Below, in pieces: positions 1 to 17,079 of a stretch of DNA of 17,079 bases. Position 1 is the first letter of the stretch, and each line of letters begins with the position of its first letter. The notes below the pieces were generated by a model. That model searched no databases and was not told where the DNA came from. It saw only the letters and a list, made by a program, of their open reading frames with translations. This stretch comes from an uncultured Clostridia bacterium (GTDB taxonomy: Bacteria; Bacillota; Clostridia; Christensenellales; Pumilibacteraceae): assembly GCA_947581755.1 (NCBI GenBank), contig CANPVN010000033.1, positions 1-17,079 on the forward strand, given 5' to 3'. A program made the position numbers and the translations under genes.

Positions 1-262
1 GACTGAAGGGATTGTTATAATAATCCGACCTTATAAAAAACTAACCGAAAAGTTTATCTTTTCGGTTAAAAAGGAGCAACGGAGCGTAAAAGACTCCTCT
101 TTTGAGTAAAGCGAAAAAGAGAGTCTCAAAGCGACTGTTGCGACGAGGTGACGCTGCACCCACAGTCGCGGTGGCGAGCCGCCACTGCCACAGTTCACGA
201 TTTACTTGATTACTAATTCCAATATTGTCTCCGCGTTCGCGGGATTATGCGAATAATTAATC
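1..262 (+). repeat. Mosaic intergenic repeat element, cut by the window edge. Module P palindrome gggatt..aatcc (3-26), H1 hairpin aaccgaaaag-tttat-cttttcggtt (27-85), H2 (86-146), X (147-243), second P-like palindrome gggattatgcgaataattaatcc (241-262).
   Basis: The same H1+H2 block recurs nearly identically at 9905-10030 (reverse complement) and 16460-16577. The X module recurs 8 more times. Matches were found by reading both strands. Confidence 0.8.
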
Positions 263-275
263 CGAACTTATATGA

Positions 276-309
276 AAATCGCTTCTGCCCAACAAGGCAA
301 AAGCGATTT
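276..309 (-). terminator. Hairpin (14-bp imperfect stem aaatcgcttctgcc/ggcaaaagcgattt, loop caacaa) just downstream of the tRNA-fMet gene. Possible tRNA 3' terminator or processing signal.
   Basis: Inverted repeat with one mismatch. On the minus strand it is followed by a weak U-rich tract (uuuucau). Confidence 0.35.
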
Positions 310-318
310 CTTTATAAA

Positions 319-394
<76 letters not shown>

Positions 395-400
395 TCATTG

Positions 401-1384: not shown

Positions 1385-1487
1385 TGAATGAGTCCTCCTT
1401 ACAACGATTTTACACCATAGATTTTATCGCGGAAAGGGTGTTATGTCAACAAAAAAAGGCTTGAAAGGATTTTTGTTGCTCTCCGTT

Positions 1488-4103: not shown

Positions 4104-4123
4104 GGAAACACAAAAATTTAAGT

Positions 4124-4152
4124 AAAAAAGGGCGAAAGCTCCGCCTTCGCCC
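4124..4152 (-). terminator. Rho-independent terminator downstream of the glycoside hydrolase gene.
   Basis: On the minus strand the stem GGGCGAA/TTCGCCC (7 bp) with a 9-nt loop is followed by TTTTTT. It lies between the GH stop (4176) and the MMPL start. Confidence 0.55.
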
Positions 4153-4175
4153 TTCCTCTTATCTATCGCGGTTTT

Positions 4176-6272
4176 TTATTCCATAACTATCTTGTTCTTG
4201 CCCTTCATGAGTTTTATGGTACGATTTACGTCGCCGCTGACGTTGTAGACGATGACCATAGCGTCGAGTTTGGTGTCGTTATCGATGATGAGTACTGTCT
4301 TTTCGCCGTCTTTGTAGTAATCTCCTTTGATTTTTCCGTCGGGAGTCATCGCGGAGAACTTCATATAATCGAGGTCGGCTATCGCGGGAGTTATGACGAC
4401 TTTCTTGCCGCCGTCCTTTACGGTGACTCCGCCGAAGCAAGCGAGCAAAGTATAGATGGGCATAGCCGAGTGGAGACAGCACTGTTCCCCCTCGAGCCAA
4501 AAGTTTTCGGGCATGGAAGGCGAGGCGTTACGCGCAATGGAATAGTATCTGTTCTTCAAACGAATTGCCGCCAATCTGTGCCGTCCCAATTTGCACAACG
4601 CTTCTATGATATAGCACTCGGTATAGATCGAAGCGTTCTGCGCCGAACTCAGGAACGCCGCCAGGACGTCCTTGTTTCCGTCGGGTGTAAGGTCGGTAAG
4701 CACGGCAAAGGCGTTGGCTCTGTCGTCGCAGACTTTTCCCGACGAGAATATCGAGCCGTTGAAGAACTTTCCGACTATGGCGTTTTTGATGAGATTCATG
4801 CTGTTGTCTATGAACGAAGTATCCTCTATGCCGTTTCTCGAAGCAAGTTCTTTGGCATATCTCAGACAGGAGTAGTACAGTACGTTTTCGGTAACTTCTA
4901 CGTCGAAGTTGTCGGTCTCGACATGAGCGTCTATCCTCGAAACGACCAATCCGTTGTTGTTTATCTTCCAATTTGCGAGATATTTGACTACGCAGTCGTA
5001 AATTCTCTTGTCAAGGTCTCCGTAAGAGTCGGTGTACGCCGCAAAGAACCCGAACTCACTGCAACACAGCAGTCCCGAAAAAGGATCCTCGTTGGGTCTG
5101 TAAAGAGCGTCCTGCTTGAGCATGCCCGACTTTTCGGCTTGAATGAGAGTATCGCAAATCTGCTTTCTTACCAAGGAGACTCCGCCCTCACCGTAAGCCA
5201 TCATCAAATCTCTCGCGGCGACGACACAGTCGAAGAAATCGCTCGACGGCGCGGAATAGACCGAGACGAACCTGTCGGAAATGCACGCCGAGAGCGTGGA
5301 CGCGCTCTTTTTGAATATCGCGTTGAGTACGGGGTCGCTGCAATCGAATACCGCTTTCATGTCCTCGCCGAAGCGCAAGGTATGGTATGTCAATTTTTTG
5401 AGTTTTATATCTTTGGGAGTCTCGACGACCAACCTGTCTCCCATAACGGAAAAGTAAGGGAACGCGAGATGATTTTCGTTCATTTTACCGATATATTTTT
5501 GATTTTTCTCGGGGTGTTCGCCGTAGAACAGAATTTCCGTCTTGGCTCTGTCGGAGTGAAAGGAAAAGGCGGGATATACTCGCTTATGCTCGTCGAATTT
5601 GACGGTATAGATGTTTTTATCCACCGTAGAAGTCTTTACGGGTTTAGCCTTCACGGGCTTTTCGGAAAAGGCAAAAGCGGGAATGGGGCGAAGAGAAAGC
5701 GGCAAAACGCTCTCGTCGTAAGCGCCCTGTTCCTCTGCGTCGGAAAAGATATTCGAGGCGTAATGCAAACTCATGAGTCCGTCCAACGAGTTCTCCAACG
5801 TCGCGTCGTACTGCCAGAAGGAATCCGAAAAGGTTGCGGAATCCTTGACGAACTCCACCCAGGACACGGGAGCGCATTCGAAGGTAGCGTCGGAACTCAA
5901 TACGACCTTGTCTGAGCTTACCGCCTCGAAAATGAACTTGGGAGAGGCGTTGAGCGCGCCGCCGTTTTCGACGGGCGTGTGTTCGCAAATAAATACGAAT
6001 ACGTTTTCTCCCTTCGTCACGAACTTGGAAATATCCACTTGATCGTAGTAGTCGGCAACATTGCTCGTCATTCCGCCGTTGCGGACGACGAACTTGCCGT
6101 CTTTTTTCTTGTTGCCGATATTAAAGAAGTACCTTGTAGAGCAAGCTATGCGCGCCGTAAGTTTTTTGGGCTTCTTTTCGAAATTTATTTTTTTTCTGAA
6201 AATTACAAATTCGGGTTTGTCGAGGGCGTTTTTGCGCCATATCCACTTAGCCTCGGAAAAAATATTTGCCAT
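4176..6272 (-). CDS. Large glycoside hydrolase, probably of the six-hairpin (alpha/alpha)6 type and possibly alpha-L-rhamnosidase (GH78)-like.
   Basis: 698-aa ORF with a perfect RBS AAGGAGA 8 nt upstream. The N-terminus ...SEAKWIWRK... resembles the A-x-WIW start of Bac_rhamnosid_N domains. There is no signal peptide. The family assignment comes from memory of motifs and has not been verified. Confidence 0.45.
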   Translation of the reverse strand: MANIFSEAKWIWRKNALDKPEFVIFRKKINFEKKPKKLTARIACSTRYFFNIGNKKKDGKFVVRNGGMTSNVADYYDQVDISKFVTKGENVFVFICEHTPVENGGALNASPKFIFEAVSSDKVVLSSDATFECAPVSWVEFVKDSATFSDSFWQYDATLENSLDGLMSLHYASNIFSDAEEQGAYDESVLPLSLRPIPAFAFSEKPVKAKPVKTSTVDKNIYTVKFDEHKRVYPAFSFHSDRAKTEILFYGEHPEKNQKYIGKMNENHLAFPYFSVMGDRLVVETPKDIKLKKLTYHTLRFGEDMKAVFDCSDPVLNAIFKKSASTLSACISDRFVSVYSAPSSDFFDCVVAARDLMMAYGEGGVSLVRKQICDTLIQAEKSGMLKQDALYRPNEDPFSGLLCCSEFGFFAAYTDSYGDLDKRIYDCVVKYLANWKINNNGLVVSRIDAHVETDNFDVEVTENVLYYSCLRYAKELASRNGIEDTSFIDNSMNLIKNAIVGKFFNGSIFSSGKVCDDRANAFAVLTDLTPDGNKDVLAAFLSSAQNASIYTECYIIEALCKLGRHRLAAIRLKNRYYSIARNASPSMPENFWLEGEQCCLHSAMPIYTLLACFGGVTVKDGGKKVVITPAIADLDYMKFSAMTPDGKIKGDYYKDGEKTVLIIDNDTKLDAMVIVYNVSGDVNRTIKLMKGKNKIVME

Positions 6273-6301
6273 AGAACAGTCTCCTTATCGTATAGTCGGT
6301 T

Positions 6302-7711
6302 TTATTTGTCGTCGGGGCGATCTTCCTCCGCCGTAGGCTCTTTGACCTTGCCGAGGAAAGAAGGGATTTCCAAGCCGCTCATTTTGAACACGTCGTTGAG
6401 AGGGGGTACGGATTTGAGCAACCCCGCTATGAAGTTCGCCGTCGCGGGAGATTTTCCGTCTGCGCCCATGCTGTCCCAAACAGTGACTTTGTCTATCTTT
6501 ATGTTCTTTATAGCCTCTACCTGAAGTTTTACGAGAGCGTCGAGTTTGTCGGTTATAAGCATCTTGACAGCCTCGTCGCTGCCGCCCGCCGCTTCGACGA
6601 GTCTCTTGAAACCGTCGGCTTGCTTGGAAAGTATCTCGTAAGTTCCGCGGGCTTCGGCTTCGGCTTTCGCATAGATGGCGTCGGCTTCACCGCGCGCCTT
6701 TCTTCTCATCTGCTCGGCTTCGGCTTCGGCTTCGGTCTCGAGTCTCCTCTTTTCTATCTCGGCTTTTACGAGGACGTCCGCTTCGAGAGTACTCTTTTCT
6801 CTCTCGGCACGAACGGCTTCGGCTTGTTGCTGAGCCTTATACGCTTCTCTCTTGGCGTTTGCTTCGGCGACCTTTTCTGCGACCGAGGCTCTTCTCTGCG
6901 CTTCCGCCTCTACTTCCCGCAAGGTGGCGTTGGATTGCGCGACGTTGGCTTTAGCCTTGTTTTCGCCGTCCACCGCCGCGGAGTTGGCTTCCGCGACTTT
7001 GATTCTCTGATCCATAACCGCGTTGGCTTCGCCTATGCTACCGTCTCTGTTCTTTTCCGCAACGGAGCGTTTTGCGTCGTTTATCGCCTTCGCCGCCGCC
7101 TCTTTACCCAAAGCCTCTATATAACTCGACTCGTCGGTAATATCGGTAATGTTGACGTTTATGAGTCGTATGCCTATCTTTTTGAGTTCTCCCTCGACGT
7201 TTCTCGAAACGGCTTCGAGGAATTTATCTCTGTCGGAGTTTATCTCCTCAATATCCATCATCGCTATGACAAGACGCAACTGACCGAGAATAATATCGTT
7301 GCACAGATCCTGAATGTCCTTGAGTTTGAGTCCCAACAATCTCTCCGCGGCGTTCTGCATAACTCCGGGTTCGGTGGAAATGCCCACCGTGAAACGCGAC
7401 GGCACGTCCACACGAATGTTCTGGTGAGACAACGCGCCTCGCAAATCGACGTTTATCGATATGGGAGTAAGGTCGAGAAATGCGTACGCCTGAATAATAG
7501 GCCAAATAAATTGCGCTCCGCCGTGAATACACTTGCTGGGGCGATTGGTGCCATCCTTTTCCTTTCCCATGCTTCCGTAAATAACCATTATCTTGTCCGA
7601 GGGGCATTTCCTGTATCTCGACAGAAAAACCGCGACAAGACTTATCAGAACCACGACTATGGCTATGATAAGAGCAACCATTCCGACAACAGTTAAAGCG
7701 CCGAATAACAT
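6302..7711 (-). CDS. floT: Flotillin (SPFH/band-7 domain, FloT/YqiK-like) with a long Ala/Glu-rich coiled-coil (EA-repeat) region.
   Basis: 469-aa ORF. It has an N-terminal TM anchor, an SPFH domain (…KCIHGGAQFIWPIIQ…INVNITDITDESSYIEALG…) and a flotillin-type EAEAEA/AEAR repeat segment. RBS AAGGAGGA lies upstream. It sits immediately downstream of an NfeD gene, as in the B. subtilis yuaF-floT locus. Confidence 0.85.
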   Translation of the reverse strand: MLFGALTVVGMVALIIAIVVVLISLVAVFLSRYRKCPSDKIMVIYGSMGKEKDGTNRPSKCIHGGAQFIWPIIQAYAFLDLTPISINVDLRGALSHQNIRVDVPSRFTVGISTEPGVMQNAAERLLGLKLKDIQDLCNDIILGQLRLVIAMMDIEEINSDRDKFLEAVSRNVEGELKKIGIRLINVNITDITDESSYIEALGKEAAAKAINDAKRSVAEKNRDGSIGEANAVMDQRIKVAEANSAAVDGENKAKANVAQSNATLREVEAEAQRRASVAEKVAEANAKREAYKAQQQAEAVRAEREKSTLEADVLVKAEIEKRRLETEAEAEAEQMRRKARGEADAIYAKAEAEARGTYEILSKQADGFKRLVEAAGGSDEAVKMLITDKLDALVKLQVEAIKNIKIDKVTVWDSMGADGKSPATANFIAGLLKSVPPLNDVFKMSGLEIPSFLGKVKEPTAEEDRPDDK

Positions 7712-7751
7712 ATTAACAAATCCTCCTTAATAGATATTATGTTCGAAAATT

Positions 7752-8366
7752 TTATTTTAACGGCTCCACAACAAGAGTGCTTTCGCCGATCACGTCGGTG
7801 ATTTTGACTTGAGAGCCCGTCTTGATAGGCTCTTCGCAATCGGTGATCGCGTCTCTCTCGATGAGAGTGTCCTGAATAACGACATTGACTTTTCCCATGC
7901 CTTTGCGAGAAGCGGGCACGGTAAGATAAACTTCACCGACTTTTCCCAGAGCGTTTTTGAGAGCGATATTGCCGTTGCTCTGAAGTTTCATAATGCTCTT
8001 CAAAAGGAAAGCGACGCCGACGGCAGCCGCCGCGCCCACCGCCAAACCTATAAGCAAAGCCGCCCACCAAGGCAAAACAAACGCCATAGTGTAAGCCATC
8101 CAACCGCCGACCGCAAGAAAAGCAAGCGCAGACCTCAACGACAAAACTCTCAACCCCGCTGCGGAACTTATGCCCTCGTCGTTGGCAAGATCCACATCGT
8201 CAAGATCTCCTCCGTCATAATCGAAGGAAGTATCGTCTCCGCCCATTCCGATTATCATAAGAATTATCTGCACGATCATGACAAGCGTCGCGGCAGCCGC
8301 TATGATAAACAAAACACGCTGGAACTCGGTGTTGGAATTCCACCAACTCGAAACGGATAAAAACAT
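7752..8366 (-). CDS. NfeD-family membrane protein (N-terminal TM helices plus a C-terminal OB-fold), the partner of flotillin.
   Basis: 204 aa. It has three hydrophobic segments followed by a beta-rich soluble tail (GKVGEVYLTVPASRKGMGKVNVVIQDTLIERDAI…VKITDVIGESTLVVEPL) typical of the NfeD short form. Its position directly upstream of flotillin supports the call. Confidence 0.7.
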   Translation of the reverse strand: MFLSVSSWWNSNTEFQRVLFIIAAAATLVMIVQIILMIIGMGGDDTSFDYDGGDLDDVDLANDEGISSAAGLRVLSLRSALAFLAVGGWMAYTMAFVLPWWAALLIGLAVGAAAAVGVAFLLKSIMKLQSNGNIALKNALGKVGEVYLTVPASRKGMGKVNVVIQDTLIERDAITDCEEPIKTGSQVKITDVIGESTLVVEPLK

Positions 8367-8563
8367 TTCTCTTCACTCCCTGCTTTCAAATTTAGGGTAT
8401 AGATAAGTCTATACATAATTAAGTATAACACAATATAATACGATTTTCCACTGTTTTGAGATAGAATTTGTAAATTTCACAATATTCCCGCCCACCCTTT
8501 CGACGGATTTCCCCCTTCTCCCTCTCTCCCTTCCCCTTACCGTTTTTTCCCCTACCTTATACC

Positions 8564-8740
8564 TTGGCTCCCATTGGCTCAATTTCCCCTCCCGACCTTT
8601 TCTTGGCTCCCCTTGGCTCAATTTCCCCTCCCGACCTTTTCTTGGCTCCCCTTGGCTCAATTTCCCCTCCCTACCTTTTCTTGGCTCCCCTTGGCTCAAT
8701 TTCCCCTCCCTACCTTTTCTTGGCTCCCCTTGGCGGCTTC
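8564..8740. repeat. Tandem array of a 39-bp unit, ttggctccccttggctcaatttcccctccc[g/t]accttttc. Four full copies (starting at 8564, 8603, 8642, 8681) and a fifth degenerate copy follow with no spacers.
   Basis: The exact 39-bp period was counted directly. Copies 1-2 have cccgacc and copies 3-4 have ccctacc. The unit contains ggagccaagg and is derived from family module A (…aaagggagccaagg). Confidence 0.9.
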
Positions 8741-9060
8741 GCCTTTCCTTCCTTCTCTCTTGGCTCCCTTTGGCGGCTTTTGCCGCCAAGGGGAGCCGGC
8801 GCCAATCAATCTAACCTTTTTCTTACCTCGTCAAAAAGTTTAACTTTTTGACGAAAGAGGAGCAGTCGCCTGTAAGAGGCTGCTTTTGACGCTTGTCGGA
8901 AAAAGAGCCTGACAACGGCGTACTGCGACGAGGCTGAGGGGATTAATTATTCGCACAATCCCCCGAACGCGGAAGTCACGCTTGAATTAAAATTCAAGCA
9001 ACTCGCGATTTTGGGTGCAGCGTCACGCTGCCTGAGGGGATTATAATCAATCCGACTTTT
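8741..9060 (-). repeat. Composite mosaic repeat element in reverse orientation: A (8741-8800), H'-type hairpin block with cgtcaaaaag..ctttttgacg (8806-8930), P palindrome (8933-8965), X (8961-9032), P (9033-9058).
   Basis: Its reverse complement aligns module by module with the plus-strand element at 10321-10598, with the modules in a different order. Confidence 0.8.
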
Positions 9061-9093
9061 TGGGTGAATTGTCAAGTGAAGCGCAACAGTAGT

Positions 9094-9132
9094 AAAAAAA
9101 GGCAAGCGTAAAATTTTCTTTTTACGTTTGCC
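9094..9132 (-). terminator. Rho-independent terminator of the rubrerythrin gene.
   Basis: On the minus strand a 13-bp stem (GGCAAACGTAAAA / TTTTACGCTTGCC, one mismatch) with a 5-6-nt loop is followed by TTTTTTT. It lies 40 nt downstream of the stop codon. Confidence 0.55.
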
Positions 9133-9173
9133 TTATCGATGAAAAAAATCGGTCTTATGTACGCGAATAGGTC

Positions 9174-9725
9174 TTATTTGAAATATCTTTTCAAGAAGCC
9201 CTCAAACGCCTTGCCGTGGCGGGCTTCGTCTCTTGCCATTTCGTGAACGGTGTCATGGATAGCGTCGAGTCCGAGTTCCTTTGCTCGTTTTGCAAGATCC
9301 GTCTTGCCTGCGGTTGCGCCGTTCTCCGCCTTTACTCTCATTTCGAGATTGGTCTTTGTGGAGTCGGTTACGACTTCGCCCAAAAGTTCGGCAAATTTAG
9401 CGGCATGTTCTGCTTCTTCGTAAGCAGCCTTTTCCCAATACATGCCTATTTCGGGATAGCCTTCTCTGAAAGCGACTCTTGCCATAGCAAGATACATACC
9501 TACCTCACAACATTCTCCGTTGAAATTAGCGCGCAATCCCTCGACAACATCCTCGGGAACTTCGGGTTTTCTGCCCACTCCGACAACGTGTTCGGAAGCC
9601 CAAGACATCTGTCCTTCGACAACTTCGACGAACTTCTCGCCCGGAGCCTTGCAAAGAGGGCATTTATCGGGTCTTACATCGGATTCGACGATTTCACCGC
9701 AAACGGTACATCTCCATTTTTTCAT
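9174..9725 (-). CDS. Rubrerythrin-family protein with an N-terminal rubredoxin-like Cys4 domain (CxxC…CxxC) and a C-terminal ferritin-like diiron domain (a reverse rubrerythrin arrangement).
   Basis: 183 aa. It has CTVCGE…CPLCKA at the N-terminus, and E…EEAEH and E…DEARH diiron ligand motifs in the C-terminal half. RBS AGGAGGA lies upstream. Confidence 0.85.
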
Positions 9726-9765
9726 AAATAAAAATCCTCCTGAAAAATAAGATTTATCGGCTATA

Positions 9766-9794
9766 ATGATACCCTAACCCGCAAAAAATGTCAA
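9766..9794 (-). promoter_or_regulatory. Sigma70-like promoter for rubrerythrin: TTGACA -17 nt- TATCAT, read on the minus strand.
   Basis: The -35 element is the reverse complement of tgtcaa at 9789-9794. The -10 element is the reverse complement of atgata at 9766-9771. The spacer is exactly 17 nt, and the site is about 40 nt upstream of the ATG. Confidence 0.45.
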
Positions 9795-9854
9795 GTCTTT
9801 TCTCACCCCAACCCGACATTGTCGTTAAACAATCCCCGCCCTTATATTATATAA

Positions 9855-10062
9855 GGTCTATTTATTATAACAATCCCTTCAGTCGTGCATAAGCACGACA
9901 GCCACCCTTACTGCGTCGCAACAGTCGCTTTGAGACTCTCTTTTCGCTATCGCTAAAAGAGGAGTCTTTTATGCTCCGTTGCTCCTTTTTAACCGAAAAG
10001 ATAAACTTTTCGGTTAGTTTTTTTATAAGGTTGATTTATTATAATAGCCCCTTCGGGAAAAG
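9855..10062 (-). repeat. Mosaic element copy in reverse orientation: P remnant plus S hairpin gtcgtgc-ataa-gcacgac (9862-9900), H2 (9905-9975), H1 (9976-10030), P (10031-10062).
   Basis: Its reverse complement is nearly identical to plus-strand positions 20-146 of this window. Confidence 0.85.
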
Positions 10063-10084
10063 AATTAGCTATTATCTTCAGCGG

Positions 10085-10310
10085 CCCTGCCGCTGGCCGC
10101 CCTTGGCGTAAGCTAAGGGGGGGGCTGTCACCGAAGGTGACCGGGGGGATTTCGATTATGCAAATCCCCACGAACGCGGAAACCACGCTTGAAGTAAAAA
10201 CCGCCAAATCGCGAACTGTGCCCGCGGCGGCTCGCCGCCTCTTTTAGCGATAGCGAAAAGAGAGTCTCAAAGCGACTGTTGCGACGCAGTAAGGGAAGCT
10301 GTTGCCGCTT
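10085..10310 (-). repeat. Mosaic element segment: A-variant ggccgcccttggcg, hairpin gtcacc-gaag-ggtgac, P palindrome, variant X9 (10166-10239, ending in hairpin ggcggc-tc-gccgcc), and a partial inverted H2 (10239-10305).
   Basis: It is colinear with 13785-13930, where the hairpin is instead ggcaccc-tcc-gggtgcc and X ends in gcagcg-tca-cgctgc. Confidence 0.7.
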
Positions 10311-10320
10311 GTCGGCAACT

Positions 10321-10598
10321 GAAGGGATTGTTTATTTTATAATCCCCTCAGTCTCGTCGCAACACGACATTATGAGTCGCTTTTGCCGACAAGCGTCAAA
10401 AGTCTCCTCTTTAGGTCGGTTGCTCCTCTTTCGCCAAAAAGGTAAACTTTTTGACGAGGTAAGAAAAAGGTTAGATTGATTGGCGACAGCTCCCCTTAGC
10501 GGCAAAAGCCGCCAAAGGGAGCCAAGGCAGCGTGACGCTGCACCCAAAGTCACGAGATAGGTGATTGCTAATTCAAAGTTGATTTCCGCGTTCAAAGG
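10321..10598 (+). repeat. Mosaic element: P (10321-10350), H' block (10352-10483, hairpin cgccaaaaag-gtaaa-ctttttgacg), A (10488-10526), X3 (10527-10598).
   Basis: A near-identical P-H'-A block lies at 16216-16413. Confidence 0.85.
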
Positions 10599-10620
10599 TT
10601 GTACTAATATCTAATAAATA

Positions 10621-10955
10621 ATGCTCTTGACATTAAAAGCGTCGTGGAGGTTCGGAACCCCATCGCATCGTCGCAACTGTCGCTTTTGAGACTCTCTTTT
10701 TCGCTTTGCTCAAAAGAGGAGTCTTTTATGCTCCGTTGCTCCTCTTTCGTCAAAAAGGTAAACTTTTTGACGAGGTAAAAAGGTCGGATTGTTATAAACA
10801 ATCCCTTCAGTCTGCTATTAGCAGACAGCTCCCCTTAGCGGCAAAAGCCGCCAAAGGGAGCCAAGGGGTTGTGCGTACAACAGTCTCCGTTCGCGGAAAC
10901 CCTGTCGGAGTTAAAATTCAAGCAAATCGCGACTATGGGTGCAGCGTCACGCTGC
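10621..10955. repeat. Mosaic element cluster: module T (10621-10670; also found reverse-complemented at 16580-16640), a hybrid H2/H' block (10668-10790), P (10784-10810), S hairpin gtctgc-tatta-gcagac (10809-10825), A (10828-10866), and X4 in reverse (10884-10955), which abuts the cadA-like stop codon.
   Basis: The module order here again differs from the other copies. X4 ends 1 nt from the ATPase stop at 10956. Confidence 0.8.
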
Positions 10956-12923
10956 TTATTTATTATTCACATTCATTGAGTTCAAAATTGCAATCACAGC
11001 CACTCCCACGTCGCCGAATACAGCCATCCACATATTGGTTATGCCGAAAGCCGAGAGGATAAGGATAGCGGCTTTGACGACGAGCGAGAAGATAATATTC
11101 TCGTAGACGACGCGCATGGTTTTTTTGGCTATGCGTTTGGCGATGGGGAGCCCGTTGAGGTCGTCTCGCATGAGAACGACGTCGGATGCTTCGATAGCGG
11201 CGTCGCTGCCCACGCCGCCCATTGCGATACCTATATCGGAGCGCATGAGGACGGGAGCGTCGTTGATGCCGTCACCGACGAAGCAGAGAGCTTGGGAGTT
11301 TTGTTTTTCAGCGAGGAGTTTTTCGACCTCGGCGACTTTATCGGCGGGCATGAGAGAGGCTTTATAGCCGCTCAATCCGAGGGTGCGGGCGACGGAAGAT
11401 GCGATTTTCTCGTTATCGCCCGTCAGCATAAAAGTTTTGCAATTCATATTGCGGAGTTCTCGGATAGCCTGTTGAGATTCGGGTTTTATCTCGTCGGAAA
11501 AGAGCATGGAGCCGACGAATATCCCGTTATGCGCCACATAGACCACGGTGCCCGCGCCTTGAGTCTCGACGAAGTCTACATTATAAGCTCTCATCAATTT
11601 TTCGTTGCCGCAGAGAATGAGTTCATCGCCTTTTTTCGCGGCGATACCCTTGCCCGAAATATCGGAAAGGACATACCCATCCTCGACTTTTCCGTTGTAA
11701 GAAGCGACGATAGACCTTGCTATGGGGTGCGAAGAATCGCGTTCCGCGATGGCGGCAAGCCTCAAGATTTCCTCTTTTTTATCGGCGGGAGAGAGTTGCG
11801 AGAGCGCAAAATTTCCCTTTGTCAGCGTGCCCGTCTTGTCGAAAACGAAGATATTCGCCTTGTTGAGTTTTTCGAGATAGTTCGAACCTTTTACGAGTAT
11901 CCCTTGCCGCGAAGCCGCGCCTATTCCGCAAAAGAAGGACAGCGGTATGGAGATGACAAGCGCGCAGGGGCACGAGACCACCAAAAAACTCAACGCTCTG
12001 TACACCCAAGTCATCCAATCTCCCGTCACGAGCCCGGGAATCAAAGCCAACAACAGCGCTATTCCCATAACCGAAGGCGTGTAATATTTGGCGAAAACCG
12101 TTATAAAGTTTTCCGACTTCGCTTTTTTGTCGGAAGCGTTCTCCACAAGCTCGAGAATTTTGGAAACGGTGCTGTCGTAAAACGCCTTTTCCACGCGTAT
12201 CTCGAGTTGAGAGGTGAGATTGACGCACCCGCTTATGACTTCGTCGCCCGTAAAGACTTCCCGAGGAAGCGACTCTCCCGTCAACGCCTTGGTGTCGAGA
12301 CTCGAATTTCCCTTGATTATAACGCCGTCAAGAGGCACTTTTTCTCCGGGGTTTACGAGAATAGTCTCTCCGACAGAGACCTCGCTCGGATCCACCGTCT
12401 CGATTCCGCTTTCGCGCTTAACAACGGCGCAATCGGGACGAAGTTCCATAAGCGCGGAGATGGATCTACGCGAACTGCCCGTCGCGTATCGCTGAAACCA
12501 CTCGCCCGTCTGATAAAACAACAATACCGCGCACGCCTCGTCGAATCCCTCGAGTTCCATTCCGCTCACCCCTCGATATATCGCAAGCCCGAAAGCCCCG
12601 AAAGTGGCTACGCACATAAGAAAATTCTCATCGAAAATCTGCCCGTGCGCAATGTTTATCGCCGCCTTGCGGAATATGTCGTAACCTATGAATACATATA
12701 TCGCAAAATATAAGCAGAAAGGCAAAAGCCAACAATATCTCCCCGAGAATACTCCCCCCAAGTTTATCGCCTTGTCCGTCGCAAACAACGCGACAAACAA
12801 CACAAACGCAGTTATTATGCGAATGAGAGCGTTCCGCTCCCTTCTGCCGAGTCGTCTCCTCATAGCCTCTTGCTTGCCCCCTATCCCCGAATTATCCTGC
12901 AATCGGGCTCTACCTTGCGACAA
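10956..12923 (-). CDS. cadA: Heavy-metal-translocating P1B-type ATPase of the Cd2+/Zn2+/Pb2+ class (CadA/ZntA-like). As annotated here it lacks the N-terminal HMA domain.
   Basis: TM6 carries the CPC motif (VVSCPCALVISIPLS). It also has the phosphorylation site FDKTGTLT, the hinge GDGINDAP, and an actuator domain TGES. The maximal ORF starts at TTG 12923. The first ATG is at 12863 (MRRRLGRRERN…), preceded by AAGAGG, which would give about 635 aa. Confidence 0.85.
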   Translation of the reverse strand: MSQGRARLQDNSGIGGKQEAMRRRLGRRERNALIRIITAFVLFVALFATDKAINLGGVFSGRYCWLLPFCLYFAIYVFIGYDIFRKAAINIAHGQIFDENFLMCVATFGAFGLAIYRGVSGMELEGFDEACAVLLFYQTGEWFQRYATGSSRRSISALMELRPDCAVVKRESGIETVDPSEVSVGETILVNPGEKVPLDGVIIKGNSSLDTKALTGESLPREVFTGDEVISGCVNLTSQLEIRVEKAFYDSTVSKILELVENASDKKAKSENFITVFAKYYTPSVMGIALLLALIPGLVTGDWMTWVYRALSFLVVSCPCALVISIPLSFFCGIGAASRQGILVKGSNYLEKLNKANIFVFDKTGTLTKGNFALSQLSPADKKEEILRLAAIAERDSSHPIARSIVASYNGKVEDGYVLSDISGKGIAAKKGDELILCGNEKLMRAYNVDFVETQGAGTVVYVAHNGIFVGSMLFSDEIKPESQQAIRELRNMNCKTFMLTGDNEKIASSVARTLGLSGYKASLMPADKVAEVEKLLAEKQNSQALCFVGDGINDAPVLMRSDIGIAMGGVGSDAAIEASDVVLMRDDLNGLPIAKRIAKKTMRVVYENIIFSLVVKAAILILSAFGITNMWMAVFGDVGVAVIAILNSMNVNNK

Positions 12924-13102
12924 GTCTTTTCTACCTTTTTCATTATCTCCTCAAAACCGTCGTCATCCGCATCTATCGAAAGCCGCTGAGTCACAAAACT
13001 GACGCTCGCGTCCCTTACTCCCTCTATCTTGAGTATGCTTCGCTCCATCTTCGCCGCACAGTTCGCGCAGTCCAAATCTTCCAATCTGTATACCTTTTTC
13101 AT
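12881..13102 (-). CDS. Heavy-metal-associated (HMA) domain protein with a CadA-type CANC metal-binding motif. It is either a stand-alone metallochaperone or the detached N-terminal domain of the downstream ATPase.
   Basis: 73 aa: MKKVYRLEDLDCANCAAKMERSILKIEGVRDASVSFVTQRLSIDAD… shows a ferredoxin-like HMA fold pattern with CxxC (CANC). Its stop (TAG 12881-12883) lies 18 nt before ATG 12863 of the ATPase. It overlaps the maximal ATPase ORF by 43 nt in a different frame. Confidence 0.7.
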   Translation of the reverse strand: MKKVYRLEDLDCANCAAKMERSILKIEGVRDASVSFVTQRLSIDADDDGFEEIMKKVEKTCRKVEPDCRIIRG

Positions 13103-13172
13103 ATCTCTTTCCCGTCCTCCGTAATTTATTTCTTTTTAAGAATTTGTTTTTTTAACTTGAATAATCGTACTA

Positions 13173-13194
13173 TTGAGCAATCGTTCAATCGTTC
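13173..13194 (-). promoter_or_regulatory. Candidate ArsR-family operator or promoter region upstream of the HMA/ATPase genes (ttgaacgattgaacgattgctcaa on the minus strand).
   Basis: It shares TTGAACG half-sites with the arsR-proximal operator at 13597-13620. On the minus strand TTGAAC -17- ATTATT is promoter-like but weak. Confidence 0.3.
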
Positions 13195-13200
13195 GGCGTT

Positions 13201-13224
13201 AAAAAACAGGGAAGGAAGTCCCTG
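13201..13224 (-). terminator. Intrinsic terminator or attenuator immediately after the ArsR-family gene stop.
   Basis: On the minus strand, 5 nt after the TAA, the stem CAGGGA/TCCCTG with a 6-nt loop is followed by TTTTTT. Confidence 0.45.
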
Positions 13225-13229
13225 TGAAA

Positions 13230-13571
13230 TTATTTATCCTCGTTAACATGGGTGAGTCCGTACTCCATAATTTTGGTGACGTGGTCGTCATCGAGGGAAT
13301 AGCGGACTTCCTTGCCCTCTTTGGTGCCCTTGACGAGTTTTGCGCCGCGCAACACGCGGAGTTGATGAGATACCGCCGAAATAGTCATGTTGAGCGTGTC
13401 GGCAATTTCTCCTACATACATGTTGCGAATTTGCAAACAAGAAAGAATCTTTACGCGCGTGGAGTCGCCGAACATCTTGAACAAATCGGCAAGTTCGTAC
13501 ATCTCATCCTCACTCGGCAACGCAGCCGCCGCTTTGCCCGCTTTCTTTATATCCTCGACGCCTTCGCCCAT
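13230..13571 (-). CDS. ArsR/SmtB-family metal-responsive transcriptional repressor (CadC-like).
   Basis: 113 aa from ATG 13571 (MGEGVEDIKK…), with RBS AAGGAGAGAGG upstream. A winged HTH region (STRVKILSCL…VGEIADTLNMTISAVSHQLRVLRGAKLV…GKEVRYSL) is diagnostic of the ArsR family. The six-frame track extends the ORF to a TTG at 13592. Confidence 0.8.
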   Translation of the reverse strand: MGEGVEDIKKAGKAAAALPSEDEMYELADLFKMFGDSTRVKILSCLQIRNMYVGEIADTLNMTISAVSHQLRVLRGAKLVKGTKEGKEVRYSLDDDHVTKIMEYGLTHVNEDK

Positions 13572-13592
13572 AAGCCCTCTCTCCTTTGACAA

Positions 13593-13653
13593 ATATTTGA
13601 ACGTTCAATCAACTGTTCAATAATATTATATGCTCTCCATTACCCCATGTCAA
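13593..13653 (-). promoter_or_regulatory. Sigma70-like promoter (TTGACA -17- TATAAT) plus a palindromic operator (TTGAACAGTTGATTGAACGTTCAA) for the ArsR-family gene. This is the classic autoregulatory layout.
   Basis: The -35 element is the reverse complement of tgtcaa at 13648-13653. The -10 element is the reverse complement of attata at 13625-13630. The spacer is 17 nt. ttgaacgttcaa (13597-13608) is a perfect 12-bp palindrome lying between the -10 and the RBS. It resembles the TGAACA..TGTTCA operators of SmtB/CadC regulators. Confidence 0.55.
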
Positions 13654-13689
13654 GCAAAAAATCAAAAAAACTCTAACCTTTTATGTGTT

Positions 13690-14098
13690 ATCCCACCCCG
13701 ACCTTATGCCTTGGTCCCCTTTGCTCCCTTTGGTGGCTTCGCCTTTCCTTCCTTCTCTCTTGGCTCCCTTTGGAGCCTTTTTCTTGGCCGCCCTTGGCGA
13801 CAGCTAAGGGGGGCTGGCACCCTCCGGGTGCCTGAGGGGATTTGTTGTTTGAACAATCCCTTGAACGCGGAAACCACGCCTGAATTAAAAGCAACCTCTG
13901 CCGCGACCATGGGTGCAGCGTCACGCTGCCAAAAGCGATATAAAAGGACGCATTGCGACGCGGATAAGGGGAGCTGTCGCCGTTTTACGGCGACTGAGGG
14001 GATTTGTTATTTGAACAATCCCTTGAACGCGGAAACCACGCCTGAATTAAAAGCAACCTCTGCCGCGACTGTGGCAGTGGCGGCTCGCCACTGCCGCC
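13690..14098 (-). repeat. Mosaic element cluster. It holds degenerate duplicated A modules (13716-13800), hairpin ggcaccc-tcc-gggtgcc (13816-13834), and two direct P-X units 155 bp apart (P 13838-13860 with X5 13858-13929; P 13993-14025 with X6 14020-14098). The two X copies end in alternative terminal hairpins.
   Basis: The two units are identical over about 75 bp (gaggggatttgtt…ctctgccgcgac) and then diverge: …catgggtgcagcgtcacgctgcc versus …tgtggcagtggcggctcgccactgccgcc. Confidence 0.85.
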
Positions 14099-14101
14099 AA
14101 C

Positions 14102-14134
14102 AAAAAAAGGACTCCCTTTCGGAGTCCTTTTTTT
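14102..14134. terminator. Bidirectional Rho-independent terminator that ends the minus-strand surface-protein operon.
   Basis: A perfect 7-bp stem GGACTCC/GGAGTCC with loop CTTTC is flanked by AAAAAAA upstream and TTTTTTT downstream. Confidence 0.65.
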
Positions 14135-14143
14135 GTTGGGTTA

Positions 14144-14317
14144 TTTTGACAATTCGACGGAAGATTGCCTTGTCTTGTCCTTTTTCTCGTTCTTTTGGGA
14201 GCGATGAGCAAAGAACAAGCATGCAAGCGCCGCGGCAAGCGCTACCGCATTAACAGCCGCAAGAGCGATCGCCGCGCCCTTCAATGTCGAAAACGCCGCT
14301 GCAATCAAGGTAAACAT
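14144..14317 (-). CDS. Small (58 aa) single-pass membrane protein with an Ala-rich TM helix and a Lys/Arg-rich cytoplasmic tail. It is not in the six-frame track because it is under 60 aa.
   Basis: Hand-translated from ATG 14317: MFTLIAAAFSTLKGAAIALAAVNAVALAAALACLFFAHRSQKNEKKDKTRQSSVELSK*. It starts 30 nt after the upstream gene stop and has a weak RBS AAGGGA. It ends just before terminator 14102-14134. Confidence 0.4.
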
Positions 14318-14346
14318 ATCTTTTCCCTTTTTCTTATCGCAAAAAA

Positions 14347-14856
14347 TTATTCGGCATCAACGGCTGAGGCAGTGAAAGTAAGAGTATCGGTGTAAGACTC
14401 TCCGCCCGTGGAATAGTTAGCGGCAGTATCTTTCATATTTGCTGTTAAAGTTTCAGATCCGGTTGGTGTTCCTGCTTCTACTTCAAGAACCGTATTGTTA
14501 GAATCGTTGTCTAAAGTGGTTCCGCCTTTTTTGAGTTCATAATCAAGTTCTTTGTCTCCGCTTTTTACTTTCCAGCCATTTGCGCTGCTTACGGTGACCT
14601 TTAATTTTTTGCCTTTCTCGATTTTGACTTCACTTGCAGAAACAGTAATCGGATCTTGTCCGCCGATAGTGATCGTTTCGGGAATTGTGACTTTCCAAGC
14701 ATCTTCTGCACTGTAAGTTACTGTCGTTGTGCTTGCGCCTTTTCCGTTATCGACTTTTGTTTCAGCCGAAGCGACGTTGACCGCGCCGAGCGATCCTGCG
14801 AGCGCCAACGAAAGCATAGCCGTAGCGCCCAGAAGTACCAAGTTCTTCTTTTTCAT
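14347..14856 (-). CDS. Secreted beta-rich surface protein with a signal peptide and a WxL-like C-terminal region (GWKV … YTDTLTFTASAVDAE).
   Basis: 169 aa. The N-terminus MKKKNLVLLGATAMLSLALAGSLGAVNVASA is a typical Sec signal. Good RBS AAGAGG. The mature part is Thr/Ser/Val-rich, which fits a beta-sandwich. Two W-K-V motifs and a C-terminal Y-T-x-T-L-T-F-T pattern resemble the WxL domain consensus (Y-x-G-T-L-T-W-T-L). Confidence 0.55.
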   Translation of the reverse strand: MKKKNLVLLGATAMLSLALAGSLGAVNVASAETKVDNGKGASTTTVTYSAEDAWKVTIPETITIGGQDPITVSASEVKIEKGKKLKVTVSSANGWKVKSGDKELDYELKKGGTTLDNDSNNTVLEVEAGTPTGSETLTANMKDTAANYSTGGESYTDTLTFTASAVDAE

Positions 14857-14908
14857 AAAAAATACCTCTTAAAAATTTATTATGACTCGGGATTTTTCCC
14901 GTTGCCAC

Positions 14909-15412
14909 CTATATTACAGTCAGCGCGACGACCGCGGAGACGTTGTTCGTGGGAGAAAGATCGCTCATGCGGTAAGGCTGCACCAAAAGTTGCGCCTTAT
15001 ATTCTCCCGCGGCAAGCCCGTGAGATAACGTCACCTGATAGATATGTTTGCCGGGCGCAACATAGCCCGTCTCGAAAAGGACTTCGGAGCCGCCCTCTCC
15101 GTCGGGGAGCGTCAATGTAAACGTCATATAGTACAGTCCGTTGTTCTCGATTGGGTTATAAAGATCTATTGCGACAGTTTCGAGTTCGGACAGAACAGTC
15201 AGTGTGGAGAATCCCGCCACGGTGACTCCCGGAGTCGAAGTTTGTCCTTGATTGGGTCGCTCGTCCGTTGCGTTCGGATCGAAAACGACGCCGCCCGTTG
15301 TCAGTCTCGGCTCTTCCATTCCCGCCACACAAAACAGCAGAATGACGTCGAACAGCAAAAGAAGGGCAAGCGTTATGGATGAAACTGTAATTAAAACTCG
15401 TTTTTTGTTCAT
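14909..15412 (-). CDS. N-terminally membrane-anchored (or signal-peptide) extracytoplasmic protein of unknown function. It is the first gene of the surface-protein operon.
   Basis: 167 aa. Strong RBS GGAAGGAG. One N-terminal hydrophobic helix is followed by a Pro/Thr/Gly-rich linker and a beta-rich domain. No recognisable catalytic motif was found. Confidence 0.55.
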   Translation of the reverse strand: MNKKRVLITVSSITLALLLLFDVILLFCVAGMEEPRLTTGGVVFDPNATDERPNQGQTSTPGVTVAGFSTLTVLSELETVAIDLYNPIENNGLYYMTFTLTLPDGEGGSEVLFETGYVAPGKHIYQVTLSHGLAAGEYKAQLLVQPYRMSDLSPTNNVSAVVALTVI

Positions 15413-15547
15413 GAGACTCCTTCCTCTTCTTCAAAAATATCGCAAAAATTCATTGCTCCCGAATTTTCGCCGTACAAGAAAGGCTCTTGTTAAGTCCTCT
15501 TTCCTTATGTTCTTCGGAAAAGTACAATATTAGTATACTAAAGTATT

Positions 15548-15575
15548 TTGACTTTGTCAAGCATTTTTTTACAAT
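15548..15575 (+). promoter_or_regulatory. Sigma70-like promoter for the XRE regulator gene: TTGACT -16- TACAAT.
   Basis: ttgact at 15548-15553 and tacaat at 15570-15575, in the divergent intergenic region shared with the minus-strand operon. Confidence 0.4.
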
Positions 15576-15621
15576 AGTAAAATAAAATTTGACAAAAGAG
15601 GGAATAATTTTGGGGACAACC

Positions 15622-15915
15622 ATGTTGAACGAAAATATTCGTGGATTGAGAAAGGTGCGACATTTGAGTCAGGTAGAACTTGCGAAGGGCTTGAATGTCA
15701 GCAAACAGTGCGTTTCGAATTGGGAAAACGACAATATTCTTCCCTCGGTGGAAATGCTTGTGAAGATTGCAAAGTTTTTCGGGGTCTCCACGGACGCCCT
15801 TCTCGGAATAGATAATAAAAAGACCGTCTATGTTGACGGTCTTTCCGACGTACAAATCGATCACATCAAACTTCTGATCGAAGATTTGAAGAGAACGAAC
15901 GAAGCCTCTCTTTGA
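15622..15915 (+). CDS. XRE-family (Cro/CI-type) helix-turn-helix transcriptional regulator.
   Basis: 97 aa from ATG 15622 (MLNENIRGLRKVRHLSQVELAKGLNVSKQCVSNWENDNILPSVEMLVKIAKFFGVSTDALLG…). The motif Q-x-x-LA-x-x-x-x-VS-x-x-x-VSNWE is the canonical XRE HTH. The six-frame track starts it at TTG 15589. Confidence 0.8.
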   Translation: MLNENIRGLRKVRHLSQVELAKGLNVSKQCVSNWENDNILPSVEMLVKIAKFFGVSTDALLGIDNKKTVYVDGLSDVQIDHIKLLIEDLKRTNEASL

Positions 15916-15924
15916 ATATAAAAA

Positions 15925-16215
15925 AATCCCTTCAGTCGTGCATAAGCACGACAGATTCCCTTGCTAAGGGAAGCCACGGGTAGTGCGAATCCCCGACTTT
16001 GTTTTTTTAGCCGCCCGTGGTTCCCGCACCCCTTTGACTCCTTTATAATTGGAAATATAGAAATGAAATTCTATTAAAAGTTTTCGTATTAAAATACCTG
16101 GTTCAATGTTACTTTTCATGCTCTGAAAAGTAACCAAAAGGGCAGTGTGACGCTGCACCCATAGTCGCGAGTTGCTTGATTTTTAACTCAAGCATATTTC
16201 CGCGTTCGCGGGACA
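15925..16215 (+). repeat. Repeat cluster: P remnant plus S hairpin gtcgtgc-ataa-gcacgac (15925-15961, identical to 9870-9898), a family-unrelated hairpin-rich segment (15962-16140), and X7 (16141-16212).
   Basis: Direct sequence identity with the other copies. The central segment has its own hairpins (ccacggg…cccgtgg; ttccctt-gcta-agggaa; gttacttttc-atgctct-gaaaagtaac). Confidence 0.7.
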
Positions 16216-16413
16216 GTGCGAATAACAAATCCCCTCAGTCTCGTCGCAACACGACATTATGAGTCGCTTTTGCCGACAAGCGTCAAAAGTCTCCTCTTTA
16301 GGTCGGTTGCTCCTCTTTCGTCAAAAAGGTAAACTTTTTGACGAGGTAAGAAAAAGGTTAGATTGATTGGTACCAGCTCCCCTTAGTGGCAAAGCCACCA
16401 AAGGGAGCCAAGG
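16216..16413 (+). repeat. Mosaic element: P (16207-16248), H' block (16232-16372), and A (16375-16413) in its variant form ttagtggcaaagccaccaaaggg.
   Basis: Near-identical to 10335-10526 except for a compensatory stem change in module A. Confidence 0.85.
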
Positions 16414-16439
16414 CATAAGGTTTGATTTTGCTCCCGAAG

Positions 16440-16640
16440 GGGCCATTATAATAAATCAACCTTATAAAAAAACTAACCGAAAAGTTTATCTTTTCGGTTA
16501 AGAGGAGCAACGGAGCATAAAAGATTCCTCTTTTGAGCGATAGCGAAAAAGAGAGTCTCAAAGCGACAGTTGCGACGATGCGATGGGGTTCCGAACCTCC
16601 ACGACGCTTTTAATGTCAAGGGCATTAATTATATAAATAA
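16440..16640 (+). repeat. Mosaic element: P (16440-16459), H1 (16460-16515), H2 (16516-16577), and T in reverse (16578-16640).
   Basis: H1+H2 match positions 27-146 of this window. T is the reverse complement of 10621-10670. Confidence 0.85.
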
Positions 16641-16854
16641 AACCTTATGTCTGTCTAGCTTTTGGGGTTCACTTCAGTTTGAGTTGTTTACAGATTGTAA
16701 TCAACTGCGGATTGCGTCGCAACGCCACCGCCCGATTACAGTCAAAAGTTTATTTATTAATAATATAAACGAGCCGAAAAAAAGAAGCAGTTTCGGGAAA
16801 ACAAATCGCCCACGGATATACAACACTCGCAGGCGATTTTTTTTATTAATTATT

Positions 16855-17023
16855 AAGGTTGGATTGTTTATAATCCCCTCAGGCACCCGAAGGGTGCCGG
16901 CTCCCCTTAGCGGCAAAGCCGCCAAAGGGAGCCAAGGAAATACGACTAATTCCTTGAACGCGGAAACCACGCTGTTGTTAAAAAAAACCTCTGCCGCGAC
17001 CATGGGTGCAGCGTCACGCTGCC
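16855..17023. repeat. Mosaic element: P (16857-16880), hairpin gcaccc-gaa-gggtgcc (16881-16897), A (16895-16932), and X8 in reverse (16952-17023).
   Basis: The modules are as elsewhere. X8 equals X5 except for the internal loop (ttgttaaaaaaaacc versus tgaattaaaagcaacc). Confidence 0.85.
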
Positions 17024-17079
17024 TCGACAACGTATTGCGAAGTTTATTCTATATAATAAAGAAACGAAGCGAAGAAACG

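Follow-up and report, generated by a model that had tools for sequence, protein, structure and literature searches.

We analysed a 17,079-nt window of the genome of an uncultured Clostridia bacterium of the family Pumilibacteraceae (assembly GCA_947581755.1, contig CANPVN010000033.1, positions 1–17,079), whose intergenic regions carry short, hairpin-forming repeat modules, labelled here P, S, X, A, H (as H1 or H') and the composite K-G-H unit. The window is a piece of bacterial chromosome with ordinary genes, nearly all on the minus strand, encoding a Colicin_V (CvpA-type) protein, an MMPL transporter, an SPFH protein, a rubrerythrin, an ArsR-HMA-P-type ATPase operon, an XRE-type helix-turn-helix (HTH) protein and tRNA-Met. 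The best relatives of the ATPase come from Clostridia metagenome-assembled genomes (MAGs) at 71–74% identity, one of them named Candidatus Limihabitans stercoravium. Repeated DNA is confined to the intergenic regions 1–263, 8520–9053, 9860–10955, 13718–14097 and 15925–17024, which it occupies end to end, between the promoter of a gene and the terminator or stop codon of its neighbour. The nearest long relative, GCA_964447305.1 (ATPase 72% identical), contains none of these repeats in 22 kb, which makes an orthologous comparison impossible. An earlier, sequence-only reading of this DNA had proposed that compensatory base-pair changes in at least four different stems reflect selection on a structured RNA or on a single-stranded DNA (ssDNA) hairpin recognised by a protein.

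Perfect hairpins, defined by a stem of at least 6 pairs and a loop of 3–6 nt, are about eight-fold in excess in the intergenic DNA (40 in 4.09 kb, against 5.0 ± 2.0 in dinucleotide shuffles), and coding DNA shows no excess (9 in 9.0 kb, against 9.3 in shuffles). Single repeat units fold with z-scores of −2.5 to −6.8, equally well with RNA and DNA parameters and on either strand. Terminator-like sites are modestly enriched (21, against 12.4 ± 3.8 in shuffles); a hairpin followed by a T-run occurs at H1, at the P copy 10786–10804 (minus strand), at X9 and in the plus-strand reading of X at 10941–10955, and the T-run is absent after S, A, H' and most X copies. The covariance models of Rfam 15 left the repeats unmatched at E values up to 1; tRNA-Met alone passed, and two further matches fell far below their gathering scores. 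Positions of the individual modules are collected in Table 1.

Preservation of pairing through sequence change is seen in the S slot, which follows hairpin P and consists of AATCCCYTCAG, a perfect hairpin and then CAGCYCCCCTTA. Its nine occurrences contain seven distinct stems (GTCGTGC, GTCTGC, GGCACCC, GTCGCCG, GTTGCCG, GTCACC and, in the case of X, GGCAGCG), all of them perfect and forming a graded series in which each variant stands one to three pairs from another. In the outer cells, 41 of 42 are Watson-Crick, compared with 26.4 ± 3.1 when the 3' arms are permuted; the observed count was reached in 2 of 10000 permutations. The pairs counted include no G.U and no one-sided change, and the loops vary freely. 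The sequence-only reading had divided this slot in two, describing variants of an S hairpin and, separately, of a hairpin preceding P. The GTCGTGC and GTCTGC stems of the first set are real, with one copy placed 9 nt from its true position at 15935–15952; the stems of the second also exist, but they occupy the same slot read on the opposite strand. Within that second set, the sequence written as gtcacc-gaag-ggtgac is really GTCACC-GAA-GGTGAC at 10127–10141, and the stems at 13816 and 16882, offered as variants, are one palindrome in opposite orientations with no difference between them. The count of at least four different stems is therefore unsupported as stated, as one slot was counted twice and one variant is the same stem. 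More generally, all five hairpin sets that had been listed exist, with positions off by 1–9 nt and details in error.

The K-G-H unit, of ~120 nt, is present in eight copies that fall into three subfamilies sharing a three-stem architecture. Nine of its pairs are changed on both sides, in 20 cells, at 95.9% pairing; this was reached in 0–1 of 500 shuffles, and controls in which the alignment was slid gave 0–3 covarying pairs. Four of the nine pairs represent the difference between H1 and H', for which the earlier proposal of equivalent slots in paralogous blocks is borne out by an aligned slot with four compensated pairs, the two hairpins forming two discrete subfamilies. Three others belong to a stem with arms separated by ~45 nt, GCAACaCGAC in type 2 and GCAGTaCGCC in type 2b, and copies of these two types are ~85% identical outside this covarying long-range stem. 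It is these long-range changes that argue most strongly for a constraint on folding that goes further than local palindromes. Because the copy at 10660–10781 combines a type-1 body with the H' hairpin, the modules recombine independently. A 73-nt module with TTGACA inside occurs at 10614–10686 and 16560–16632 as inverted copies that are 97% identical. A TAGACA-18-TATAAT match at 16657–16628 on the minus strand lies just upstream at the second of these and upstream of the K-G-H copy at 16466–16590; together with H1 and its T-run ~150 nt downstream, it would delineate a putative small RNA.

Module A is the focal element of the sequence-only reading. It reads GCTCCCCTTAGCGGC-AAAA-GCCGCCAAAGGGAGC at 10489–10522 and 10828–10861 and, across five copies, comprises 15 pairs, of which 12 are invariant, with two conserved mismatches and one double change, in the copy at 16376–16408. 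The C:G to T:A switch reported there is real on both sides, but its covariation was equalled in 108 of 500 shuffles, so the double change is not significant on its own; as evidence, it is an anecdote and statistically empty. The copies described earlier are present at slightly shifted coordinates, the loop at 16900–16932 being AAA rather than AAAA, and a fifth, reversed copy lies at 8763–8796. When metagenomes were scanned for CCAANGGGAGCCAAG, an arm of module A, the 120 matches came from soil and marine samples and were all due to chance, as 14 specified bases are too few; none was module A. Five tandem copies of the 39-nt unit CTTGGCTCCCCTTGGCTCAATTTCCCCTCCCGACCTTTT stand at 8563–8757, the first 15 nt of which equal one module A arm, and a C/T-rich stretch at 13719–13781 is related to this unit.

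Module X is the hairpin GCAGCGTGACGCTGC followed by an unpaired ACCC tag, which reads GGGT on the other strand. The window holds six X copies, three X variants and eight further S-slot hairpins. Aligned over homologous flanks, X, X9 and X6 give two covarying pairs in five cells (C:G to U:A in two copies, A:U to G:C in three) and one transition mismatch; the pairs include no G.U and are strand-symmetric. The suggestion that the 5' hairpin of X is replaced in X6 and X9 stands as regards compensated pairs within homologous flanks, and needs correction in that the forms are discrete subfamilies and the core GGCGGCTCGCC of X6 and X9 also occurs in other genomes. Hairpins with this core adjoin X in other Clostridia (L034, L039, L103 and L112), so that they represent another hairpin type of wide distribution and not a variant confined to this locality.

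X extends far beyond the window. A scan for the exact 19-mer GGGTGCAGCGTCACGCTGC, with one genome per species and classes taken from record titles, yielded more than 115 loci; among the matches listed, ~95 belong to Clostridia MAGs or isolates, ~12 to Verrucomicrobiota and 2 to Nitrospinaceae, and the Clostridia include Ruminococcus (with R. flavefaciens isolates), Oscillospiraceae, Acutalibacteraceae, Christensenellaceae and Ruminiclostridium. The 19-mer is also present in 33 viral contigs (IMG/VR), giving loci L003–L117 and L241–L273 overall, and in one other MAG X occurs in at least nine separate contigs. On the tag side, these loci carry unrelated repeat families, all reading hairpin-ACCC-RWTYYCGCG, with the ACCC tag constant by construction since it is part of the query; it is unpaired in predicted folds. 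Upstream, a purine occupies position −1 in 113 of 127 sites, and C is weakly preferred at −2 (62 of 127). None of the other window modules was found in the X loci of other genomes.

Pairing is preserved in these genomes as well. Non-exact X copies in the same loci show nine compensated doubles (G1:C15 to C:G, G4:C12 to A:T and A3:T13 to G:C) against ~5 uncompensated singles, and two copies located through the element body, hence unbiased for X, read CCAGCG/CGCTGG. In F1, a family of X-ended repeats from another MAG, covariation is almost absent from the body. In loci L004, L016, L030, L083, L093 and L046, X forms tandem arrays of 28–39-nt units, accompanied by half-units in which GCAGCGTGACG is repeated before a full X. 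A search for a gene linked to X among ORF (open reading frame) clusters from the 115 loci recovered only housekeeping families (such as FeoB-like and alanine-symporter-like, identified by eye), and no gene recurs next to X. In the literature searched, nothing relevant to the X sequence came up.

The position of X relative to gene ends is precise. At 17 of 161 X sites, an ORF of 80 codons or more has its stop codon flush with the first base of the hairpin or borrowing that base (7 TAA, 7 TAG and 3 TGA); at 19 more, a long ORF terminates at the TGA inside the X loop. By comparison, ORF-end offsets from 1 to 39 nt account for 1–4 sites each, and the tag side has only four ORF-end sites across −2 to 12 nt, so that placement is polar. 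X likewise abuts, with its hairpin leading in every case, the CCA end of tRNA-Arg, tRNA-Gly, tRNA-Trp and transfer-messenger RNA (tmRNA) genes, where it stands between the gene and its terminator. The sample also contains another organism whose ATPase is 74% identical, and there too (L240, 4307–4336) TAA is followed directly by X, which has the loop AGA and the tag ACCC, with AATATCGCGAG next. With respect to tandem genes, neither orientation of X prevails (15 vs 13 in genomes, 6 vs 4 in viral contigs), and an RNA function of X argued from gene orientation was accordingly rejected.

Within the window, the modules occur in both orientations and in varying order, abutting without unique spacers, as in the mosaics known as bacterial interspersed mosaic elements (BIMEs). 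Thus, the composite (reverse P-N-X)-(K-G-H type 2)-A is found at 8759–9036 and 16137–16413, and (K-G-H type 2)-A-(reverse P-N-X) at 10340–10640. Other observations concern the borders and contents of the blocks. Two long ORFs that cross repeat blocks, 13630–14253 on the plus strand and 16701–17030 on the minus strand, have no Pfam match and are most likely not genes. The end of block 13718–14097 is marked by a 19-pair hairpin between an A-run and a T-run (14097–14139), which looks like a bidirectional terminator. Short-read contigs of the host organism or its relative (L001, L002, L239 and L240, some of only 1–4 kb) every one end within a repeat module (X, A or S), indicating that these repeats break metagenome assemblies.

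Table 1. Coordinates of the repeat modules in the window and of X copies flush with gene ends in other genomes
Feature	Position	Strand	Remarks
Module A	10489–10522	+	15-pair stem, two conserved C.A/A.C mismatches; focal copy of the sequence-only reading; DNA fold −12.8 kcal/mol, z = −5.4
Module A	10828–10861	+	Identical to the 10489–10522 copy
Module A	16376–16408	+	Inner stem GTGGC/GCCAC, sole compensated C:G to T:A change; AAA loop
Module A	16900–16932	+	GCGGC/GCCGC, AAA loop
Module A	8763–8796	−	Reverse orientation; A.C mismatch here G-C
S-slot hairpin GTCGTGC-ATAA-GCACGAC	9882–9899	+	Follows P 3' arm AATCCCTTCAG
S-slot hairpin, stem as at 9882–9899	15935–15952	+	~20 nt past the stop of the XRE-type HTH gene
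S-slot hairpin GTCTGC-TATTA-GCAGAC	10810–10826	+	
S-slot hairpin GGCACCC-GAA-GGGTGCC	16882–16898	+	
S-slot hairpin, GGCACCC stem in opposite orientation	13816–13832	−	
S-slot hairpin GTCGCCG-TAAAA-CGGCGAC	13976–13994	−	Absent from the sequence-only reading
S-slot hairpin GTCACC-TTC-GGTGAC	10127–10141	−	
S-slot hairpin GTTGCCG-ACAAG-CGGCAAC	10301–10319	−	Absent from the sequence-only reading
X + tag (GCAGCGTGACGCTGC-ACCC) in S slot	9013–9031	−	After P hairpin
X	10937–10955	−	Flush against TAA stop (10956–10958) of the P-type ATPase gene
X + ACCC tag	10527–10545	+	
X + tag	13911–13929	−	
X + tag	17004–17022	−	
X copy GCAGTG-TGA-CGCTGC-ACCC	16142–16160	+	One T.G (C.A on the other strand)
X9 GCGGCG-GCT-CGCCGC	10224–10238		One compensated pair vs X
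X6 GGCAGTGGCG-GCT-CGCCACTGCC	14073–14095		Two compensated pairs vs X; stem 4 pairs longer
X6-type GTGGCG-AGC-CGCCAC	171–185		Adjoins truncated X
K-G-H type 2	10340–10476	+	Stem GCAACaCGAC/GTCGGTTGC, arms ~45 nt apart, around inner hairpin, then H'; 97% identical copy 16227–16363
K-G-H type 2b	8800–8942	−	Type 2 architecture with GCAGTaCGCC/GGCGACTGC; three compensated pairs vs 10340 stem
K-G-H type 1 with H1	9898–10023	+	Other copies 35–156 and 16466–16590, minus strand
K-G-H recombinant	10660–10781	+	Type-1 body, H' hairpin of type 2
H1 hairpin	9990–10016	+	11 pairs, then T-run, terminator-like; other copies 42–68 and 16474–16500, minus strand
H' hairpin	10747–10773	+	Four compensated pairs vs H1; other copies 16318–16344, 10431–10457 (one C.A), 8828–8854 (minus strand)
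S-P-N-X unit	13812–13932	+	Four consecutive hairpins: S, P, CGCGG...CCGCG stem, X
S-P-N-X related copies	8925–9036, 10132–10244, 10860–10959, 13985–14101, 16916–17027; 10522–10640, 16137–16250, 144–275		Last three reversed
X flush at tRNA/tmRNA CCA or stop	L038 936–1031, L063 7537–7631, L110 255–349, L092 1156–1250, L100 4314–4691		Hairpin-first; other genomes

The case for selection on pairing stands for the S slot, the K-G-H unit and X, but not for module A, and most of the compensated differences separate discrete subfamilies. The general proposal that pairing is kept while sequence drifts thus stands for these three, for X both in the window and in unrelated genomes; pairing exceeds chance by far, and neutral junk whose arms drift independently of each other is excluded. 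Subfamilies without intermediate forms, which the sequence-only reading had named as telling against it, are what we find for H1/H' and for X/X6/X9, whereas the S slot is graded. Coincidence among hairpins picked by eye is highly improbable as an explanation: module A on its own, the one claimed difference that is the same stem and the two claims falling on one slot would suit it, but it is refuted by the controls, permuted or slid, to which the S slot, K-G-H and X were subjected, by the unbiased X copies elsewhere and by hairpin density relative to shuffles.

With moderate confidence, we read the stems as modules of lineage-specific, mosaic interspersed intergenic repeats, comparable with repetitive extragenic palindromic (REP) elements and BIMEs, bcr1 and BOX, and constrained to fold mostly as DNA. 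The modules P, S/X, A, H and the three-stem K-G-H are strung together in varying order and orientation and take up the space between promoters, terminators and stops; copies would multiply or exchange as DNA and persist only where their arms still pair. For S, X and H, the constraint would most likely act on the DNA itself, as an ssDNA hairpin or cruciform recognised by a trans-acting protein, and templated correction from arm to arm may help to keep the stems. X with its ACCC tag would then be a conserved recognition end common to unrelated repeat families in Clostridia and beyond. The short hairpins are strictly Watson-Crick and strand-symmetric and vary freely in their loops, which favours a constraint at the DNA level. 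Between the two options of the sequence-only reading, an ssDNA hairpin of the kind recognised in systems with a REP-associated tyrosine transposase (RAYT) fits best; a structured RNA fits less well, given the lack of an Rfam match and the strictly Watson-Crick short stems.

Several results weigh against this interpretation. No transposase ORF (Y1/RAYT, IS200 or other) was found in the window, and a phmmer search with IS608 TnpA and Escherichia coli RAYT queries found no IS200/RAYT-like ORF in ~1 Mb of sequence around X sites, a sample into which a single-copy gene would rarely fall. Target-site duplications, empty sites and strain polymorphisms were not seen, so that mobility is something we infer, and copy numbers in the host were counted from the window alone. 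X is certainly transcribed where it stands between a tRNA and its terminator. In K-G-H, the compensated pairs of the stem with arms ~45 nt apart fit RNA, and G.U pairs at three positions (18 cells, against one C.A) all fall on the strand that carries H1 and its T-run.

These last points feed an alternative that we regard as unlikely: that the modules are functional structured RNAs, either multicopy small RNAs or cis-acting terminators or exonuclease barriers in 3' untranslated regions, and that the changes reflect selection on an RNA fold. K-G-H and module A depart from the short hairpins: they have positions where a G.U or a mismatch is conserved, a bulge, pairs formed over a distance and, in H1, a resemblance to a terminator, and K-G-H could therefore be RNA. 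Its three-stem shape recurs in three subfamilies with nine covarying pairs, three of them long-range, and one copy, at 16466–16590, has the promoter-like TAGACA-18-TATAAT upstream. X, for its part, follows stops and tRNA or tmRNA CCA ends hairpin-first, and P with GACCTTTTT and X9 resemble terminators. However, the strand favoured by G.U differs between modules of one and the same composite (K-G-H as opposed to A and P-N-X), which makes a single structured transcript unlikely; assignment of one transcript strand from G.U and C.A counts was rejected, as the modules disagree. The repeats had no Rfam match at the E values searched, S-slot hairpins were counted without G.U and with free loops, units lie in both orientations relative to the minus-strand genes, X is unbiased between tandem genes and the body of the other X-ended family is almost devoid of covariation.

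A further explanation, which we consider improbable, dispenses with selection on the fold: one arm would be copied from the other, by quasi-palindrome template switching or intrastrand gene conversion, and recombination would swap modules between subfamilies. It accords with S, X and H hairpins that are perfect, strictly Watson-Crick and strand-symmetric around loops of 3–5 nt, with the discreteness of H1/H' and X/X6/X9, with the recombinant at 10660–10781 and with the tandem partial duplications of one X arm in other genomes; the presence of GGCGGCTCGCC in those genomes further suggests that the variants are old and not products of local drift. Such copying nevertheless leaves unexplained the eight-fold hairpin excess, the exact conservation of X and its unpaired tag across phyla and the conservation of X beside an ATPase gene whose protein is only 74% identical. 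It hardly accounts for three compensated pairs whose arms lie ~45 nt apart, and module A keeps two uncorrected mismatches in 4–5 copies.

Compared with known systems, the repeats most resemble REP elements and BIMEs of Enterobacteria, Pseudomonas and Stenotrophomonas, with which they share short G+C-rich palindromes bearing an unpaired tetranucleotide at the foot and stems kept by compensated changes. Also shared are a strictly extragenic location, as single, tandem or inverted copies or joined with other motifs in mosaics, and, for the S, X and H hairpins (15–27 nt, intergenic only), the form of a short palindrome, which in REPs measures 20–40 nt and may be perfect or imperfect. REPs number tens to hundreds per genome. 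Contiguity with, or supply of, a stop codon is a further common trait, known for REPs (PMC3733652). The differences are equally clear. The REP tag is GTAG or CGTC and here it is ACCC/GGGT; REPs are usually species- or genus-specific, whereas the X 19-mer is common to several phyla and phages; and X, unlike REPs, is also flush with tRNA and tmRNA 3' ends. Known REP/RAYT systems have a single-copy RAYT gene flanked by the repeats, and none was found in the window or in the X loci sampled, where the hosts are largely Clostridia. Group 1 RAYTs have been reported in Clostridia (PMC5581495), and the REP surveys consulted (PMC3733652 among them) make no mention of Firmicutes or Clostridia as REP hosts.

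Firmicutes offer two further parallels. The bcr repeats of the Bacillus cereus group are interspersed, cruciform-like and ~100–155 nt long, similar to K-G-H in size and multi-stem shape, and in bcr1 the fold is kept by compensatory base changes (PMC3184786). bcr1, which shares no sequence similarity with the window units, has terminal 5-bp direct repeats and has been shown to be transcribed; neither feature was seen here. BOX elements of Streptococcus pneumoniae (boxA-boxB-boxC) are modular Firmicute intergenic repeats with a variable number of sub-elements and predicted stem-loops (PMC3184786). Their order is fixed as A-Bn-C, whereas module order and orientation in the window vary freely, and again there is no sequence similarity. 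Another parallel is with insertion sequences of the IS200/IS605 family and their miniature derivatives, which have subterminal hairpins read on ssDNA by a Y1 HUH transposase, insert without terminal inverted repeats and show strand polarity. The IS200/IS605 hairpin lies some 10–20 nt inside the element end, whereas that of X lies at the very end; upstream of X there is no conserved 4–5-nt target, and no TnpA/TnpB was found nearby, nor any TnpA-like ORF. Consistent terminal inverted repeats or target-site duplications, as expected around the 50–500-bp units of miniature inverted-repeat transposable elements, were likewise not seen at unit borders. Rho-independent terminators share the hairpin with T-run and the gene-end position with H1, P + GACCTTTTT and some X/X9 copies, but most modules lack a T-run. 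Integron attC sites, CRISPR repeats, dif/parS-type sites, hairpins of diversity-generating retroelements and LexA boxes were rejected, as their defining motifs are absent.

Interspersed hairpin repeats with compensatory changes have been described before, and the narrow claim is in this respect ordinary; the by-product of most interest is the X hairpin, which is shared across phyla and placed exactly at gene ends. We tentatively suggest, as a rather speculative extension, that X (GCAGCGTGACGCTGC-ACCC) marks an undescribed and very widespread hairpin-specific system, of which the S-slot hairpins of the window would be locally diversified relatives. Such a system would imply a conserved trans-acting factor, which might be a single-strand transposase that has been domesticated and targets gene ends or, alternatively, a factor of RNA 3'-end processing or mimicry, as stem plus ACC resembles an acceptor stem with NCCA. 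Short-read assemblies of gut Clostridia break at such repeats, and the intergenic regulation of a large group without cultured members is thereby concealed. If a dedicated protein maintains the hairpins, REP/RAYT-type systems would extend to hosts unmentioned by REP surveys, with a tag not seen before and a range of hosts that is unusually broad. By sitting exactly at stops and at tRNA and tmRNA ends, X offers a concrete, testable handle on how REP-like elements choose gene ends or come to be selected there.

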